A DNA stretch of 64,000 nucleotides from Dehalococcoidia bacterium (GTDB lineage Bacteria; Chloroflexota; Dehalococcoidia; Lucifugimonadales; UBA3495). The notes under the pieces are model-generated. The model made no database searches and was not told the origin of the DNA. It worked only from the letters and a program-made list of their open reading frames with translations. Positions 1 to 51,207 of the stretch are shown here, piece by piece (the stretch's first letter is position 1; every line of letters begins with the position of its first letter). A program made the translations under genes and the position numbers. Location: the NCBI GenBank assembly GCA_022451925.1, contig JAKUNL010000001.1, positions 73,814-137,813 on the forward strand. Direction: 5' to 3'.

Positions 1-299
1 TCGCCAACTTTGAGCAACGGACGTCGCACTAGTTTAGGTTCCTGCAGCATCAGATTAACCATCGCATCATCAGATAGCTCTTTATCTGCTAGACCCATTT
101 TCTTCAAACTGGGACTCCGACGAGCAAATATATTCTCCGTGCCCACCATGGTGGCTAGGGTACGAATCTCATTGTCAGTAAATGTCTCTTGGAAGAAATC
201 TCTTTCAGTTACTTCCAATCCGTTCTGCAAGAGTAACTCTCTCGCTTTACGGCAGGTTGATCAACGAGGCCACCAATAAAATTCAACGGTCTGGCTCAA
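1..299 (-). CDS. ArsC/Spx-family thiol oxidoreductase, selenocysteine (UxxC) candidate; C-terminus cut by the window edge
   Basis: Not a single ORF in the track. The minus frame reads M(TTG 297..299)SQTVEFYWWPR-[TGA 261..263]-STCRKARELLQNGLEVTERDFFQETFTDNEIRTLATMVGTENIFARRSPSLKKMGLADKELSDDAMVNLMLQEPKLVRRPLLKVG. There is no other stop down to position 1. GGAGG lies 5 nt upstream of the TTG, and an in-frame ATG at 312..314 is the alternative start. The TGA aligns with the first Cys of the N-terminal CxxC(R/K)KA motif of ArsC/Spx/YffB proteins. Confidence 0.6.
207..238 (-). promoter_or_regulatory. Stem-loop downstream of the in-frame UGA (SECIS candidate)
   Basis: Perfect 7-bp stem AGUUACU / AGUAACU (232..238 pairs with 207..213) with an 18-nt loop, starting 22 nt after the TGA at 261..263. 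Confidence 0.35.
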
Positions 300-399
300 C
301 TTGGCCTCCAACATGGCTGTAGTTTATTGAAATATTTCATCTAATTCCAGGACCGCCGGTTCATCTTATACCCGAAATAGTCTTATGAAAAGTGCAGTT

Positions 400-3015
400 T
401 CAGTCGCCTTCCAATGCCTGTTTTTGCAGTTCATACAGCTTATTTATTGCCTGGAGAGGCGTGATATTCGGAATATCCAATTCCTTAAGTAATGCCTGCA
501 ATCTACCGCCGTCGTTAAACAACGCTATCTGTTGTGCCGGTTCTCCCTTTAATCGTCCGGCTGATTTCCGATTAGAACCAATATCTCCGTTGGTCTCGGA
601 TTCCAGGGCCGCAAGCACCTCCCAAGCTCGACTAATCACGCCCTGGGGCAACCCAGCCAATTGGGCGACGTGGACACCGTAACTCTTATCCGTCCCTCCC
701 TGGACTATTTTATGCAGGAACACTACGCTGTCCCCGTCTTCGGTAACCGCCACACTACAGTTACGTACACCAGGTAAATTGGCCGAAAGTTGGGTCAATT
801 CATGATAATGGGTGGCGAACAGGGTCTTACAACCAAGTCTTGGATCATTATGGATATGCTCTATGACCGAACGGGCAATGGCGAGGCCGTCATAAGTGCT
901 GGTACCTCGACCTATCTCATCAAGTATCACCAGTGACCGGGGTGTAGCCTGGTTAAGTATAGCAGCGGTCTCAACCATCTCTACCATGAATGTAGATTGT
1001 CCGGTCGCTAGATCGTCCTGTAACCCCACTCTGGTGAATATGCGGTCAACCAACCCTATAGTGGCCTCAGACGCTGGAACAAAGGAGCCAATCTGGGCCA
1101 TTAAAGTGATAATTGCCACCTGACGAATGTAAGTGGATTTGCCCGCCATATTAGGTCCAGTCAGTACCATCACACGAGTCTCTTCATTGGAGAGTTCAAC
1201 ATCGTTCGGCACGTATGTACCGGTATCCAATACGCGTTCCACAACCGGATGACGACCATTCACAACATGAATTGTATTCTCTTGATTCAATTTTGGCCTG
1301 ATGTAACCACTCTCAACCGCGGTGTCAGCAAGACTTGAGAAAACATCCAATCTAGCGATCCCATCAGCGATACTGCTAATGGAACTGGCGGATTCTGCTA
1401 ACTGGGCGCAAATCCTGAAATAGACGGATTTCTCTACTTCTTCCAACCGTTCCCTGGCGTTCAACACTAGAGCCTCGTACTCTTTCAATTCAGGCACTAT
1501 GTACCGTTCGGCATTGGTCAGAGTCTGGCGACGTATGTAATCATCAGGAACCTTATCGATATTGACCTTGCTGACCTCGATATAATACCCAAAGACCTGG
1601 TTATAACCGACCTTGAGGCCTTTGACGCCAGTGCGGTCCCTCTCACGTTGTTCTAGTCCTGCGATGTATTTCCGGGCGTTAATAGAGGCATTTTTGAGGT
1701 CGTCTACCTCCGGTGCAAATCCTGGTTTGATGACGTTCCCATCACCAATCGCGCCTACCGGGTCTGGGGCAATCGAATCTTCAATCAATGAGCAGGTCTC
1801 AGGCATAGGTCGCAGTTGGGTTTTCAGCCAGTCCAGATCTGAAGAGTCGATTAGTGCGAGGAGTGTCGGCACCGAAGACAATCCGTCTTTCAGGGCGATG
1901 AGTTCTCTAGGATTGACCATACCGGAGACTATCTTACCCACGATGCGCTCAAGGTCGGAAACCTTACTCAGCGCCGAGATGACATTTGTCCGTTTAAGGC
2001 CATCTACATAAAAATGATCCACCGCGTCCAGGCGTTCTTCCAATTTCTCCAAGTCGAGTAAAGGTTGGCCGAGCCACTGACGCAGTAAACGGCCGCCCAT
2101 AGGAGTCTTGGTACGGTCTAGAGCTGTTAGTAGCGAAAGCTCTTTGCTGTCAGTCCGGCCAGCAGAAAATAACTCCAAATTTCGGCGCGTCTGGGCATCC
2201 AAGGCCATGAAGCTGCCTGTGGCATAGATTGACAGGTTTTTCAATTGGAGTTTGGCTGATTTTTGCGTCCTGGTTAAATAATCAACGATAGCCCCTGCAG
2301 CTGCGATAACTAAATCCATCCCTTCACAGCCGAAAGACTCCAACGTCAAGATACCGAAATGTGACAACAACGCCCGACGAGCTTCTTCCAAATGAAAAGT
2401 TCTGGATTCCACAGGCGTGACTTCGTAATTACGTCCAACTATGTTGCTTCTGGACTCCGCCCAATCGGGTAGGTCATCAAAGTTAGAAACCAAGACTTCA
2501 GCGGCCTCGATACGTTCCAACTCCAAGGGCAACTCATCTAAAGATAGCTCAGTGGCTACAAATTCACCAGTAGAGATGTCCACATATGCTAGGCCGGCTC
2601 GTTCGCCTGAATCTGAAACGGCAGCCAAGAAGTTATTAGTTTTATGATCTAGGAGGGCCGATTCCACTACGGTACCCGGAGTAACAATCCTCACTACATC
2701 GCGGTCAACAAGACCTTTGGAAGTTATTGGGTCAGAGATTTGTTCGCAGATAGCGACCTTGTGGCCTTTCTTAATAAGTCGAGCAAGGTATGAATCCAAG
2801 GAATGGGCAGGTACGCCGGCAAGTGGAACCTTCAAGTCTTTGCCCATGCTTCTGGAGGTGAGAGTAATCTCGAGCTCCTTAGCGAAGAGCACAGCATCAT
2901 CATCAAATGTTTCATAAAAGTCACCCATCCGGAACATCAGAATCGAATCAGGATGAGCGTTTTTGATATTGAGATATTGGCGGCGAATCGGAGTCAACTG
3001 CCCAACCCTTCCCAA
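400..3015 (-). CDS. mutS: DNA mismatch repair protein MutS
   Basis: 871-aa ORF with FRMGDFYETF mismatch-binding motif, Walker A GPNMAGKST and DEIGRGTSTYDG. TTG start. Confidence 0.95.
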   Translation of the reverse strand: MGRVGQLTPIRRQYLNIKNAHPDSILMFRMGDFYETFDDDAVLFAKELEITLTSRSMGKDLKVPLAGVPAHSLDSYLARLIKKGHKVAICEQISDPITSKGLVDRDVVRIVTPGTVVESALLDHKTNNFLAAVSDSGERAGLAYVDISTGEFVATELSLDELPLELERIEAAEVLVSNFDDLPDWAESRSNIVGRNYEVTPVESRTFHLEEARRALLSHFGILTLESFGCEGMDLVIAAAGAIVDYLTRTQKSAKLQLKNLSIYATGSFMALDAQTRRNLELFSAGRTDSKELSLLTALDRTKTPMGGRLLRQWLGQPLLDLEKLEERLDAVDHFYVDGLKRTNVISALSKVSDLERIVGKIVSGMVNPRELIALKDGLSSVPTLLALIDSSDLDWLKTQLRPMPETCSLIEDSIAPDPVGAIGDGNVIKPGFAPEVDDLKNASINARKYIAGLEQRERDRTGVKGLKVGYNQVFGYYIEVSKVNIDKVPDDYIRRQTLTNAERYIVPELKEYEALVLNARERLEEVEKSVYFRICAQLAESASSISSIADGIARLDVFSSLADTAVESGYIRPKLNQENTIHVVNGRHPVVERVLDTGTYVPNDVELSNEETRVMVLTGPNMAGKSTYIRQVAIITLMAQIGSFVPASEATIGLVDRIFTRVGLQDDLATGQSTFMVEMVETAAILNQATPRSLVILDEIGRGTSTYDGLAIARSVIEHIHNDPRLGCKTLFATHYHELTQLSANLPGVRNCSVAVTEDGDSVVFLHKIVQGGTDKSYGVHVAQLAGLPQGVISRAWEVLAALESETNGDIGSNRKSAGRLKGEPAQQIALFNDGGRLQALLKELDIPNITPLQAINKLYELQKQALEGD

Positions 3016-46941: not shown

Positions 46942-48162
46942 TTAATTTAGGGAGACAGGCATGTTCTTAATGGAACGAAAGGTAATGCTGGGTTGGTATT
47001 CCATCTCGTTAGTTTGCAACTGCAGTTTGGGATACCGTTCGGCTAGAGCTGCAAATACTTCCTGGCCTTCTACACGAGCTATTGTTGCTCCTAAACAATG
47101 GTGGACACCGGATCCAAATGCAACATGGGGATTAGGCCAACGGGTAATATCCATAGTATTGGGGTTCTCAAACTTGTTAGGATCCCTGTTGGCCGAAGAG
47201 ATAAACCAGCGAAGACGATCATCTTTCTTGATCTGTTTCCCATGTAATTCTACGTCTCCTGCGGCAATGCGTGTTATGGACTTGACCGGAGAGTCGTACC
47301 GCAAAGCTTCCTCCGTTGCCCTGACCATCAGTCCTCTGGGGTTAGATTTCAGTAGGTCCCACTGGTCGCGATTATTCATGAAAGAAAGAGTACCGTTGCA
47401 GATCAGGTTGATGGTAGTCTCATGGCCGGCCAGCAGTAGTAACGCGGTGTTGACCAGAACCTGCTCTCGAGTGAATACACCAGTTTTCTCCCCACCAGCT
47501 AACACCGAAATAAAATCGTCTTTGGGGTTTTGAATCCTTTCTTCCACCATTGGGGTTACATATTCGTCCATGCCTTTCATCCCATCAGAAAGATGCCGCA
47601 TTCGGTCGGGTTCACCCCGACCAATGTTCAACAGTTTCTCAGCCAATAGCCTAATCTGTCGACGCTCCGTCTCGGGCACCCCCATCATCTCGGCAATAAC
47701 TAAAACCGGTAAAGGCACGGCCAGATCCCGCATAAGATCCACATCGCCCTTGGCTTCCGCTTCATCGAGTAACTCGACAATGGCCGATCTCACCAATGGC
47801 CGCCACTCTTCCATCGACTTTGGGGTGAAGAAAGAATGCAGGACTTTCCGCATTTCCAGATGTTCTGGTCGGTCATGTTGGATGAACATCTTACTTTGGT
47901 AGTTTTTTACGTAGTCGTAAAGTTCAGTATCGGACTCATATATTGCCGGGTAGGCTGGCCGTGGATCGTTGGCCATCACTTGGCTAGAGAATTGCTCGTG
48001 ATTTCTCGTTAACCAAACCAGGTCATCATGCCTAGTAACCACCCATAGCTCGTACAACTCGTTCCAGTGAACCGGGTCCTCATCCCGAAGGCGGCCGTAG
48101 TATTCATAGGGATCCTGAATAACGTCTGCGGTGAACATATCATCGTTAATCGTCGTTACCAA
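46942..48162 (-). CDS. Cytochrome P450
   Basis: 406 aa with heme-thiolate loop FGSGVHHCLGA, ExxR (EEALR) and I-helix AGHETT. Confidence 0.92.
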   Translation of the reverse strand: MVTTINDDMFTADVIQDPYEYYGRLRDEDPVHWNELYELWVVTRHDDLVWLTRNHEQFSSQVMANDPRPAYPAIYESDTELYDYVKNYQSKMFIQHDRPEHLEMRKVLHSFFTPKSMEEWRPLVRSAIVELLDEAEAKGDVDLMRDLAVPLPVLVIAEMMGVPETERRQIRLLAEKLLNIGRGEPDRMRHLSDGMKGMDEYVTPMVEERIQNPKDDFISVLAGGEKTGVFTREQVLVNTALLLLAGHETTINLICNGTLSFMNNRDQWDLLKSNPRGLMVRATEEALRYDSPVKSITRIAAGDVELHGKQIKKDDRLRWFISSANRDPNKFENPNTMDITRWPNPHVAFGSGVHHCLGATIARVEGQEVFAALAERYPKLQLQTNEMEYQPSITFRSIKNMPVSLN

Positions 48163-48544
48163 TTTGCCCTCACAAAAGTGCTGAATCGAGCCTGAAAAAC
48201 AATGCCCAAACCCTAATTCAATAATGATTATTTGTCAATAAAATGCACATCGAATCACTAAGTAGTTTAACGTGCCGTCTCCCATTAAAAGCGGATATTG
48301 TTAGAAGGCTTGCAACGTATTCATACTGGATTCAATGTGAAACTATTTCGTAACCAAATCGAGCGAAAACATTTATATCCACCCAAATACCAGCCTCTGG
48401 TACTAGCCAAAAATTTGCTGTTGTTATGACATCCTGAAAAAGGTAACAATTAATCTTTGTAATTAAGGATGTTACCAGGGATAATTGACTCATATATTCC
48501 GGTATTCGTCCGGCCAACAATGTTAAATATGCGGGGAGAACGGG

Positions 48545-49840
48545 ATGCGCGTCTTACTAATTGCCACCAACCGCCACAATCGATACCAAAGTAGATTAAA
48601 TGCCCAGCCTATGCCGATAGGCCTCGCCTACATCGCCGGTCACCTGGACCACGAACGACACGAAGTCAAAGTCCTCGATCTTATGTTTTCCGACGACTAC
48701 CTAGCTGACGTGGAAGCTGCTGTTAAAGAATTCAATCCACAAATGATCGGCATGTCCGTCAGAAATCTGAGTAACCACAGTTATCTGAACACAGTCTGGG
48801 CCCTTCCCATCAGCAAAGAGGTCATCGACAAAATCCGCACATTAAGTGACGCAGTCATCGTATGCGGTGGCCCAGCATTCAGCATCATGCCAAAAGAATG
48901 CTTCGAGTATCTAAGGTGTGACATCGGTCTGGCCGGCGACGCTGGTGAGACCTTTGCCACGTTGGCTGAGAGATTAGAGATCGGGGAGCCTAGCTATTTT
49001 AACTTGCCCGGCCTGGTCTACACGAAGGGCGGTCAGACCGTCTCTAATGAAGGCTACTGCACATCGGAATTTGCCAAGCCACCCCGCTTAGAAGATCTCG
49101 ATATGGACCGGTACAACAAAGCTGGTTTCGGCATCGGAGTCCTAACAAAACTCGGCGGATTCTATTACCCAACTAACGCTTCTCAATCACAGATCAACGA
49201 GTCAGGATGGCGGGTCATCCGTCCGATAGATGAAGTGGTCGCCGAAGTCAAAGATCTTAAACGACGCTTTGGCATGAAAAAAGTATTCTTTGTCGACAAC
49301 GGGTTCAACCTGCCCCTGGATCACGCTAAGTCGCTCTGCAACACAATAATCGAATCTGACCTAAACATCCGATGGAACACATGTCTGGCGCCGTTCAACT
49401 GCGACACAGAGCTGATTGGAATGATGAAGGAAGCTGGATGCGGGTTGGTGATGATGGTCAACCGCAGCGGTAACCCAGGCGATATGGACAGTATGGTCGA
49501 AGAGAATGATGCTCTCGCGGAGGTATGCAGAATGTGCGACGAGGGCGACCTTCATTACAATTTGGGCAAGCAGTTTGGGGAGCCCGGAGAAACCCGGGAG
49601 AGCGTGGATAACAAGTTGGACTTCCTCCGCAGTGTGAATCCCGCTCTGGCCAATCTACGTGTTGGCGTCAGCATAATGCCGGGAACGGAAGTGGCGGCAA
49701 TCGCTAAGCAGGAAGGCCTGATCACAGATGAAAGCGAGTTGGTAAAACCCACTTTTTATATTGCCGGCGAGGTCAAAGACTGGATAGTTGACTACCTTAA
49801 GGAACAAAGTGCAAAAGAACCTAGGTGGAACCTCAGCTAG
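48545..49840 (+). CDS. B12-binding-domain / radical-SAM-like protein lacking the CxxxCxxC motif
   Basis: 431 aa. The N-terminal class-B layout is VLLIATN...PMPIGLAYIAGHL...IGMSV...VCGGPAFSIMP...GDAGE. Where the RGCPxxCxFC segment is expected it reads GVLTKLGGFYYPTNAS. No CxxxCxxC occurs anywhere in the protein. Confidence 0.65.
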   Translation: MRVLLIATNRHNRYQSRLNAQPMPIGLAYIAGHLDHERHEVKVLDLMFSDDYLADVEAAVKEFNPQMIGMSVRNLSNHSYLNTVWALPISKEVIDKIRTLSDAVIVCGGPAFSIMPKECFEYLRCDIGLAGDAGETFATLAERLEIGEPSYFNLPGLVYTKGGQTVSNEGYCTSEFAKPPRLEDLDMDRYNKAGFGIGVLTKLGGFYYPTNASQSQINESGWRVIRPIDEVVAEVKDLKRRFGMKKVFFVDNGFNLPLDHAKSLCNTIIESDLNIRWNTCLAPFNCDTELIGMMKEAGCGLVMMVNRSGNPGDMDSMVEENDALAEVCRMCDEGDLHYNLGKQFGEPGETRESVDNKLDFLRSVNPALANLRVGVSIMPGTEVAAIAKQEGLITDESELVKPTFYIAGEVKDWIVDYLKEQSAKEPRWNLS

Positions 49841-49868
49841 CCCGCGATTAATCAACTTAAAAGGATCC

Positions 49869-49910
49869 TTCTTTCTCGGCCGCATAGGAAGGGTCCTTTT
49901 ACAGATTTTC
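49869..49910. terminator. Bidirectional terminator between the rSAM-like gene and the MFS gene
   Basis: aaaaggatccttc-N16-gaagggtcctttt, a 13-bp stem with one mismatch and A/T runs at both ends. Confidence 0.5.
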
Positions 49911-49926
49911 GTAATGAAGACGTAGG

Positions 49927-51207
49927 TTAGTTACTGGCTTGCTCCCTAGGGGTTTGAATGTCTATCTCGGGTGCTCCTTTTCGCACAACGCCAAACCAAA
50001 CGGTCACCAACAACGTCGCTCCAGCTGCCACCGTTATCGCCGCTTCCCAACCAAATTGCCCTGCGAGCAAAGTCAACGGATATGCACCAAGGAAATGGAA
50101 CCCGGGCGTAAACTGAAGTATTCCCATAACCCTTCCCTTCATTTCAACCGGCGATTCAACCTGAACCAGGGAAGTCGCCAAAGGCCACACGGAACCTAGG
50201 CCAAACAGCCCTACCAACAAAAACAGAAACCAAGAGAGCCAAAACCAACTTGACCACGAGAACAGAGACAAAAAGATAGAGAAAAGGACTAGGTTTATTA
50301 GCAGCGACCGGTATATCCGAACGTTTCCGATAATCGGCAACAGTATGTTGCCCAGGAAAGACCCGATACCAGATGCCAGAAATAGTAGGCCCACGCCGGC
50401 TGCACCAGTTCCGAGCACATCTTTTGCCATGGCTGGAATCACTTGCTGATGGGACATGCCAAACCCACCAAAAGAACAGGTGATTACGATCGCTGTTAGA
50501 ACGATCCGGTTGCTTCTGATGTAGGCAAAACCATCGGTGAAGTTCTTGAAGACCGATACTTCTGAGGCGCGAGTGATTTGGTTAGTCTCGCCTATCCTGC
50601 CGATACAAGCCATACTTACAATATAGCAACCCGCAATAACAAAGAGACTAGTCCCGATACCCCAAAGCTCTATGACTAACCCTAGCACCGGTGGTCCGAT
50701 CATCCTGCCAGCGTGAACCGCAGCATTTTGCATAGCGACAGCGTCCAATATAGAAGCTTTCGCCACTATGTCAGAGACCATAGTCGTCCGGGCAGGCATG
50801 TTGAGGGACTGCACTATTCCTAGCACAAACGCCGCGATATAAATATTCCAGATTGCAACTGCATCAAAGAGTTCCAATATACCTAGGGTGGCAACTAGAA
50901 ATCCTACTCCAGTCTGGGTCAACATTAGGACGTGGCGGCGGTCAAACCGGTCGGCGACGATTCCCGCCACCAACAGGAACGCTACGTTTGGGACACCATA
51001 GAGGAATATCACCAAACCCAACTCAGTGGCGGAGCCGGTCACTTCCAGGACAAGCCACCCAATCACCAGGAATTGGGTGGCTTGTCCTATCGCCTGAGTA
51101 GAACTGCCCAACCAAAACCAACGGAACGCCGGCTTGCGAAGTAGTTTGAAGACACGACTCCAATAGGAATCTGAATCAAGGTCGATCGCGCCATCCATAG
51201 AGTTCAA
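49927..51207 (-). CDS. MFS transporter
   Basis: 426 aa with about 12 predicted hydrophobic helices and the DRFDRR loop motif after TM2. Confidence 0.85.
   Translation of the reverse strand: MNSMDGAIDLDSDSYWSRVFKLLRKPAFRWFWLGSSTQAIGQATQFLVIGWLVLEVTGSATELGLVIFLYGVPNVAFLLVAGIVADRFDRRHVLMLTQTGVGFLVATLGILELFDAVAIWNIYIAAFVLGIVQSLNMPARTTMVSDIVAKASILDAVAMQNAAVHAGRMIGPPVLGLVIELWGIGTSLFVIAGCYIVSMACIGRIGETNQITRASEVSVFKNFTDGFAYIRSNRIVLTAIVITCSFGGFGMSHQQVIPAMAKDVLGTGAAGVGLLFLASGIGSFLGNILLPIIGNVRIYRSLLINLVLFSIFLSLFSWSSWFWLSWFLFLLVGLFGLGSVWPLATSLVQVESPVEMKGRVMGILQFTPGFHFLGAYPLTLLAGQFGWEAAITVAAGATLLVTVWFGVVRKGAPEIDIQTPREQASN

Follow-up and report, generated by a model that had tools for sequence, protein, structure and literature searches.

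The gene examined here lies within a 64,000-nucleotide stretch of DNA (hereafter the window) from an organism that, to judge by the organisms named as sources of its close homologs, is a marine, SAR202-type member of the Dehalococcoidia (Chloroflexota). An intact open reading frame of 431 codons encodes a protein that joins a B12-binding domain to a radical-SAM-type barrel from which the [4Fe-4S]-binding cysteine motif is missing. The features of the locus are as follows, with window positions, strand and the basis for each assignment.

46942..48162, - strand: divergent cytochrome P450 gene (CYP107/CYP125/BioI-like), a recurrent but not constant neighbor (Pfam; matches to solved P450s; ortholog survey)
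48457..48485, + strand: promoter-like sequence TTGTAA-17-GATAAT, about 60 nucleotides 5′ of the ATG (sequence pattern)
48545..49840, + strand: gene for the 431-amino-acid cluster-less protein with a B12-binding domain and a radical SAM fold (open reading frame; Pfam and NCBIfam matches; AlphaFold2 model with pLDDT 86; top fold match TsrM, TMq 0.80)
48611..48964, + strand: B12-binding Rossmann domain, residues 23-140 (PF02310, E=6e-18; residues 23-159 align with TsrM 18-154)
48755..48763, + strand: S71-V72-R73, forming the loop of the 'SxL' type that follows strand 3, with R73 at the position of TsrM Arg69 (TsrM alignment)
48866..48871, + strand: G108-G109, the 'GG' cobalamin-binding motif (invariant in three alignments; motif named in PMC9204698)
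49139..49192, + strand: former cysteine loop V199-Q216, VLTKLGGFYYPTNASQSQ, where relatives carry K-x-G-C-x3-C-x-Y-C (alignments; low AlphaFold2 confidence)
49295..49303, + strand: D251-N252-G253 at the 'GGE' position, which in TsrM is D271-S272-E273 (counted from the TsrM alignment)
49574..49594, + strand: F344-G-E-P-G-E-T350, a retained strand-5 motif of the GxIxGxxE type (G345, G348 and E349 invariant in the clade and in relatives)
49670..49672, + strand: S376 at the β6 motif position, which is Arg412 in TsrM (alignments)
49858..49901, no strand assigned: 16-bp hairpin with A-tract and U-tract flanks, between the convergent B12 and MFS genes (-20.8 kcal/mol, z = -2.5)

From the sequence signals that surround it, the gene looks monocistronic. 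The P450 gene is positioned divergently across a spacer of 382 nucleotides, just as an earlier note on this DNA had described. Promoter-like elements of the form TTG[TA][CA]A-(15-19)-NATAAT occur 31 to 107 nucleotides upstream of the B12 gene in 52 of 76 upstream regions (75 loci plus the window), regardless of whether a P450 gene is present. The hairpin that follows the gene is likely a bidirectional terminator; a scan for consensus terminators did not list it. No Rfam family or cobalamin riboswitch is detected in the 382-nucleotide spacer, either at the gathering threshold or at E≤5. The inverted repeat GGTAACA-N21-TGTTACC was a candidate for a conserved operator, which we rejected because GTAAC/GTTAC words are scattered, their positions are not conserved in orthologous upstream regions, and the repeat overlaps the conserved promoter.

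Profile searches define the architecture of the encoded protein. The Pfam B12-binding model (PF02310) matches residues 23-140 with a score of 65 bits against a cut-off of 32. In contrast, the Radical_SAM model (PF04055) remains below its gathering score (16.3 bits versus 29.5), and its match to residues 219-302 covers only model positions 21-105, which lie downstream of the cysteine motif, leaving the motif portion of the model unmatched. The NCBIfam class B model TIGR04072 aligns over nearly its full length with residues 23-419 (191 bits, cut-off 360), as does the BzaD model TIGR04385 (121 bits, cut-off 450), and the TsrM model TIGR04428 yields 82 bits (cut-off 500); the 431-amino-acid protein reaches none of these three equivalog cut-offs. 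Among solved structures, the top match by sequence is TsrM (6wte, E=6e-19). The earlier note had recognized an N-terminal class B B12-binding pattern and TIM-barrel-like segments in the C-terminal half, and both descriptions are borne out, the first by the B12-binding match and the end-to-end class B alignments, and the second by the NCBIfam alignments through residues 220-419 together with structural matches to radical SAM cores. Database names for these proteins vary among 'radical SAM protein', 'YgiQ family' and 'cobalamin-dependent protein'.

The structural matches come from an AlphaFold2 model, based on an alignment of 73 sequences, that has a mean pLDDT of 86 and a pTM of 0.85, with low confidence restricted to residues 206-221. 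A Foldseek search of the PDB, which makes the comparison with class B structures that the earlier note had proposed, places TsrM first (TMq 0.80, E=1e-25), followed by AprD4 (6fd2, TMq 0.70), MgmA, OxsB, CysS and TokK, and then by the cluster-only enzymes viperin, HydE and BioB. In the predicted structure, the barrel has the form of a partial (β/α)6 barrel homologous to radical SAM cores. The possibility that the protein is not a radical SAM homolog at all is excluded by the sequence profiles and the predicted fold.

The absence of the cluster-binding motif, which was the main claim of the earlier note, holds for all 431 residues and for every reading frame, as evident by the fact that the pattern C-x(2-5)-C-x2-C occurs neither in the protein nor in any of the six frames of positions 48401-49960. 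In the alignment with 6wte, the sequence CAYRCSHC of TsrM pairs with GGFYYPTN, such that G205, P209 and A212 occupy the positions of the three motif cysteines. The earlier note had located this site at 49139..49183, which is correct and corresponds to V199-S213, while the 19-residue string quoted for it runs over 49136..49192, an offset of no consequence. Ten cysteines are present in the protein (residues 107, 119, 125, 172, 265, 280, 286, 299, 328 and 331). The survey of homologs that had been suggested reveals the same loss throughout, since CxxxCxxC is absent from all 232 of the 232 full-length homologs retrieved (49-99% identity), and the former cysteine loop varies in both length and sequence across the cluster-less clade. 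A sequencing frameshift that conceals a cysteine-containing segment is rejected by the lack of the motif in six frames, by its absence from the 232 homologs, which come from independent assemblies, and by a dN/dS of ~0.03. The protein is therefore certainly no canonical radical SAM enzyme. It lacks the functional feature by which radical SAM enzymes are defined, and by structure and evolution it still belongs to the class B radical SAM lineage.

The gene is under purifying selection. Pairwise dN/dS values relative to orthologs are between 0.02 and 0.08 wherever dS, which is saturated, can be estimated, and dN is about equally low in the B12 domain, the former cysteine loop and the barrel. The barrel (residues 227-431) is as strongly constrained as the B12 domain. 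More than 1000 homologs from independent assemblies are present in a large protein collection, from which the 232 full-length sequences were taken. Given the intact frame, the low dN/dS and the number of homologs, we rejected the explanations that the gene is a pseudogene or an assembly artifact.

To define which functional residues accompany the loss, we compared 52 motif-bearing relatives with seven diverse members of the clade column by column, and mapped the result onto the TsrM residues named in three publications (PMC9204698, PMC8992657, PMC13331322). The cobalamin features of class B enzymes are present in the form of the PF02310 domain, the SxL-type loop and the GG motif, the last two of which are invariant. 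The arginine of the loop, R73, is invariant both in the cluster-less clade and in the 52 motif-bearing relatives. In TsrM, the equivalent Arg69 lies under the cobalt, where it blocks lower-axial ligation, stabilizes cob(I)alamin and weakens the Co-CH3 bond (PMC8992657, PMC13331322). Because the motif-bearing relatives share this arginine, it does not constitute specific evidence for polar chemistry. The His-on motif DxHxxG is absent from the protein, and a reading of the alignment places M23 at the histidine position. Also kept are K202, D251 of the 'GGE' strand, the F-G-x-P-G-E-T motif of strand 5 and the C-terminal landmarks.

The losses are concentrated elsewhere. All three cysteines and the whole loop around them are gone, including the equivalents of TsrM E236 and K240. 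TsrM E273, which ligates the cluster (PMC9204698), is replaced by G253. Across the clade, strand 4/helix 4a has lost its S...L..K segment and the G-E-G-E motif its invariant glutamate. The ribose-motif residue Asp335 of TsrM is replaced by R307, and Lys346 of helix α4a is deleted. At the β6 position, an arginine is found in the paralog described below, in most other members of the clade and in 98% of motif-bearing relatives, and serine is found only in the orthogroup of the query. The GE motif of the cobalamin domain is shifted or lost. Judging from these alignments, the pattern is selective: the cobalamin side of the active site appears to be kept, whereas the side that holds the cluster and the methionine and ribose portions of SAM appears to be lost.

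When 1.8 billion cluster representatives are scanned in full, 13,555 relatives of the protein emerge. Among the best 150 of these, the full-length proteins nearest to the query (P0121, P0122, P0123, P0126 and P0128) all lack the motif, and the next tier, beginning with P0125 (40% identity) and continuing with P0130, P0132 and others, carries the canonical C-x3-C-x-Y-C at the aligned place. P0125, P0130 and P0132, which are the nearest motif-bearing relatives, score 296-352 bits with TIGR04072, just under its cut-off of 360. The same genome (2.4 Mb, 90% complete) encodes a second copy on contig 18 that shares 50% identity and likewise lacks the motif. The tree from a quick maximum-likelihood search (IQ-TREE), provisional in its topology, groups the motif-less proteins, both paralogs among them, in a single clade (SH-aLRT 99) nested among motif-bearing enzymes similar to TIGR04072, BzaD and TsrM. 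On this provisional topology the cluster-less clade is monophyletic; one motif-less protein, P0141, is placed elsewhere on the tree, and another, P0260, was left out of it. The clade is internally divergent, with identities as low as ~35%. The combination of a single clade, deep divergence and two paralogs fits an old loss that was followed by diversification of a working protein.

Relatives of the gene are encoded in 494 stretches of GTDB species genomes, and the best 80 of these 494 (60-91% identity) are all from Dehalococcoidia, SAR202 or Chloroflexota metagenome-assembled genomes. Within an even sample of 121 kin genomes from the same order, the gene is present in ten, including three of the three that represent the family of the window. 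None of 400 further genomes from the phylum carries the gene at E≤1e-50. Therefore, the gene is a lineage-restricted accessory gene, and is not a core gene of the order.

We surveyed the neighborhoods of the best 80 of the 494 loci by calling and clustering open reading frames, which recovered the B12 gene itself in 76. No constant operon partner exists across the 80 loci, which fall into at least four neighborhood types. In the lineage of the window, the gene is flanked by genes for HerA and a small partner on one side and by DUF1385-L27-L21, then FakA-DegV-RecG, on the other, with P450 (one to three tandem copies), SnoaL and MFS genes variably inserted around it. Other branches provide three further contexts, in which the gene lies beside Amidohydro_2 and SDR-aldolase genes, upstream of DUF1800-NHL, or upstream of thiolase-ChsH2. 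Members of the paralog family neighbor genes for luciferase-like proteins, Fe-ADH, PrpD or TPP enzymes. In none of the neighborhoods examined is a reductase, a methyl-acceptor enzyme or a corrinoid activase a conserved neighbor.

The P450 gene is the immediate divergent upstream neighbor in 23 of the 76 loci in which the B12 gene was called, and 35 of the 80 loci have a P450 gene no more than 6 kb away. The P450s found in this survey are orthologous to each other and are 74-94% identical to that of the window. The pairing is retained where the genes further upstream are instead those for an amidase, a Rieske protein and a nitroreductase, whereas orthologs of the B12 gene at 66-73% identity adjoin the gene for HerA's partner with no P450. 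In the sample of 121 genomes, the P450 ortholog occurs in only three, all of which carry the B12 gene, and seven of the ten genomes with the B12 gene have no P450 ortholog; in one of the three (G078) the two genes are on separate contigs. The two genes are truly adjacent, and repeatedly so within one lineage, but the P450 is not a constant partner. The P450 was also considered as a clue to substrate identity, and this approach was abandoned because the nearest solved P450s (PksS, CYP125, BioI and CYP107) are generic and give no hint.

To explain these observations, we tentatively prefer, with a probability of roughly 0.45, that the protein is a functional descendant of class B radical SAM enzymes whose ancestor lost the [4Fe-4S] cluster and SAM cleavage once, and that it now carries out cobalamin-dependent non-radical catalysis, likely methyl transfer. 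The SAM-cleaving apparatus would have been discarded in the ancestor of the marine SAR202/Dehalococcoidia clade. Cobalamin would be held base-off and His-off with Arg73 beneath the cobalt, as in TsrM, and the remodeled barrel would provide the active site in which the cobalt reacts by a non-radical route. Most probably, this would be a ping-pong transfer of a methyl (or other alkyl) group to or from a small-molecule substrate via Co(I) and methyl-Co(III) states, with an external reductant for reactivation. We infer cobalamin binding, the type of chemistry and the methyl donor, and the identity of the donor as SAM is uncertain because the ribose and α4a lysine contacts are lost. A precedent comes from the iron-free AxxxAxxA mutant of TsrM, which still converts SAM and reduced cobalamin to methylcobalamin and SAH, although this triple-alanine variant does not complete the second transfer to tryptophan (PMC4632189).

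Non-catalytic and catalytic roles were both among the options raised in the earlier note, which listed a pseudoenzyme, a cobalamin-dependent non-radical enzyme, and a sensor or scaffold. That barrel and B12 domain are equally constrained, and that the TsrM-type arginine is retained, makes the second of these the likelier option. More broadly, non-radical catalysis is favored because the cobalamin motifs and the arginine are invariant, the barrel is constrained, the paralogs reside in catabolic neighborhoods, and TsrM itself is non-radical. The genome also encodes MetH and further proteins with B12 domains, together with a single canonical class B radical SAM enzyme, and we counted this use of B12 by the organism in favor of the same reading. 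Counted against it are the loss of the SAM contacts other than the strand-5 motif (the equivalents of E273, D335, K346 and R412), the shift or loss of the GE motif, and the lack of a conserved partner or a cobalamin riboswitch.

Alternatively, the protein may bind cobalamin without catalysis, for example as a storage protein, a chaperone or escort for B12 enzymes, or a sensor or scaffold in which the barrel is a structural lid. In favor of this, the protein has lost the catalytic motifs of radical SAM enzymes along with several SAM contacts, the gene stands alone with its own promoter and terminator, and its operon partners are not conserved amid variable surroundings. However, the constraint on the barrel is as strong as that on the B12 domain, the paralogs occupy different catabolic neighborhoods as enzymes do, and there is no output or DNA-binding domain. 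The patchy presence of the gene in 10 of 121 genomes of the order is also odd for a general B12 chaperone given that all have B12 enzymes. We view a non-catalytic role as rather unlikely. We find it more doubtful still that the protein is an adenosylcobalamin (AdoCbl)-dependent radical enzyme, in which homolysis of the Co-C bond would generate the 5′-deoxyadenosyl radical as an oxygen-tolerant replacement for the cluster. AdoCbl mutases, which such an enzyme would resemble in its action, have the same Rossmann-plus-barrel architecture. The selective retention of the adenine-side FGEPGET motif, with loss of the methionine-side and cluster contacts, could be read in this manner, and SAR202 genomes carry many oxygenases, with luciferase-like genes and the adjacent P450 as examples, which fits an aerobic life in which a radical SAM cluster is a liability. 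Yet no histidine or DMB lower ligand is available, a cationic arginine under the cobalt favors Co(I) over Co(II), the ribose contact is lost, and no adenosyltransferase or reactivase gene is found in any of the neighborhoods examined, leaving this proposal as pure inference.

We assign a similarly low likelihood to the protein being an accessory partner of the divergent P450, for example by sharing its substrate or by adding or withdrawing a methyl group within one pathway. The direct divergent arrangement with orthologous P450s in 23 loci (within 6 kb in 35 of 80), its persistence with two different sets of upstream genes (HerA and its partner, or amidase/Rieske/nitroreductase), and the co-occurrence in three of three P450-bearing genomes of the 121-genome sample are as expected for such a partnership. 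These co-occurrence counts come from kin genomes and are not independent, and the partnership is made less likely by the seven of ten genomes that have the B12 gene without the P450, by the unlinked contigs in G078, by the 66-73% orthologs that sit beside HerA's partner without a P450, and by the unrelated neighbors of the other branches and the paralog. The two genes are also divergent, each with a promoter to itself. Least probable is that an Fe-S cluster is held by dispersed cysteines, as in Dph2, and that radical SAM chemistry is retained. Ten cysteines are available, and C119, C172, C265, C299 and C331 are invariant within the orthogroup of 66-99% identity. However, invariance across the clade is limited to C265 and C299, which are equally conserved in motif-bearing relatives and hence are not replacements for the lost triad. 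In the model, C265 lies within a helix (258-271) and C299 opens a strand (299-304), so that neither is at the barrel mouth, and the methionine contacts of SAM are lost as well.

SAR202 bacteria are among the most abundant bacterial groups of the deep ocean, and members are thought to oxidize recalcitrant dissolved organic carbon. It is conceivable, if doubtful, that in aerobic deep-ocean SAR202 a radical SAM scaffold has become an Fe-S-free, oxygen-tolerant cobalamin enzyme, either a stand-alone Co(I)/methyl-Co(III) transferase that acts on recalcitrant (e.g. aromatic or methoxylated) carbon or a radical enzyme of the AdoCbl type. If this were true, the protein would represent a new mechanistic class of B12 enzyme that is derived from the radical SAM superfamily but lies outside of it. 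The joint use of two cofactors is what defines class B radical SAM enzymes, and this clade appears to have kept the cobalamin and discarded the cluster. At identities of 60% or more, the clade is conserved in no fewer than 80 species genomes of SAR202/Dehalococcoidia, and our full-text literature searches found no paper that describes it. If its members are catalytic, they would bring a new kind of B12 chemistry to a radical SAM scaffold and would serve as a natural experiment on a TsrM-type active site without its cluster. For annotation, the names 'radical SAM protein' and 'YgiQ family' are misleading when applied to these cluster-less proteins.

The closest known system by both sequence and fold is TsrM, a tryptophan 2-C-methyltransferase (6wte/6wtf, TIGR04428) with the same two-domain layout. 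The similarities extend to the arginine under the cobalt (R69, equivalent to R73), the GG motif and the PGET motif of strand 5, and TsrM conducts no radical chemistry, and its cluster-free mutant remains able to methylate cobalamin. The two proteins share only ~21% identity, TsrM is ~140 amino acids longer at the C-terminus, and TsrM retains CxxxCxxC, E273, the loop residues E236 and K240, D335, K346 and R412, each of which is absent or replaced in the query. By profile, the closest families are TIGR04072, named 'lipid biosynthesis B12-binding/radical SAM protein', and BzaD (TIGR04385), which are similar in size (~430-445 amino acids) but differ from the query clade in having the cysteine triad, the glutamate of G-E-G-E and, in strand 4/helix 4a, the S...L..K segment. 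Both TsrM and BzaD methylate aromatic sp2 carbons.

A likeness of principle may exist with MetH and systems of the MtaBC type. These methyltransferases pair a Rossmann corrinoid module with a TIM barrel and cycle between Co(I) and CH3-Co(III). The proposed mechanism for the cluster-less protein would similarly use a Rossmann-held corrinoid that cycles between these states against a substrate held in the barrel. The query differs from MetH and MtaB in that it lacks DxHxxG and its barrel is derived from radical SAM enzymes, with no Zn site or activation domain identified. The second structural match, AprD4 (6fd2, NF033070), offers a different kind of parallel. This two-domain radical SAM enzyme of the class B type has kept its cluster and lost its cobalamin, and hence the cluster-less protein, which has apparently retained its cobalamin motifs and lost its cluster, represents the mirror-image case.

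The genome from which the window derives carries a single class B radical SAM gene that looks canonical (contig 31, about 2-901, minus strand). It is matched by both PF04055 and PF02310 and is partial because it is cut by the contig end. Cluster-bearing class B enzymes have therefore not been wholly abandoned by the lineage.

Two features of the window flank the gene for the cluster-less B12-binding protein (hereafter the B12 gene) and the adjacent P450 gene:

44432-46728, minus strand: HerA-type ATPase (DUF87 + HAS-barrel) with an overlapping partner gene
49927-51207, minus strand: MFS_1/MFS_3 transporter, convergent with the B12 gene

The HerA-type ATPase and its 208-aa partner, for which a Pfam search returned no match, are kept as a pair beside the B12 gene in many loci of the 80-locus survey (ORF clusters c12 and c11). 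The transporter (cluster c28) is found in some close relatives only, and at locus L003 its orientation is opposite to that in the window. A hairpin at 49858-49901 is common to the transporter gene and the B12 gene. In related genomes (loci L018, L021, L022, L023 and L029), three tandem P450 copies adjoin the B12 gene on its upstream side, and these are 74-86% identical to the single P450 of the window.

Upstream of the B12 gene, an inverted repeat (GGTAACA-N21-TGTTACC, 48442-48476) shares part of its span with the promoter-like -35/-10 site (48457-48485), and is not conserved across the orthologous upstream regions checked. The 5′ leader of the L024 ortholog carries five tandem copies of CCCGATTT, located ~20-70 nt upstream of the gene start.

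Many orthologous leaders (L015-L071) present a short GC-rich hairpin 3′ of the conserved -10 box, as exemplified by GGGCCAAC...GCCCGG...CCGGGC. The window's version, CCGG-TATTCGT-CCGG, resides in the same place (within 48486-48544), and an Rfam search gave no matches. The hairpin is too short to be a known riboswitch.
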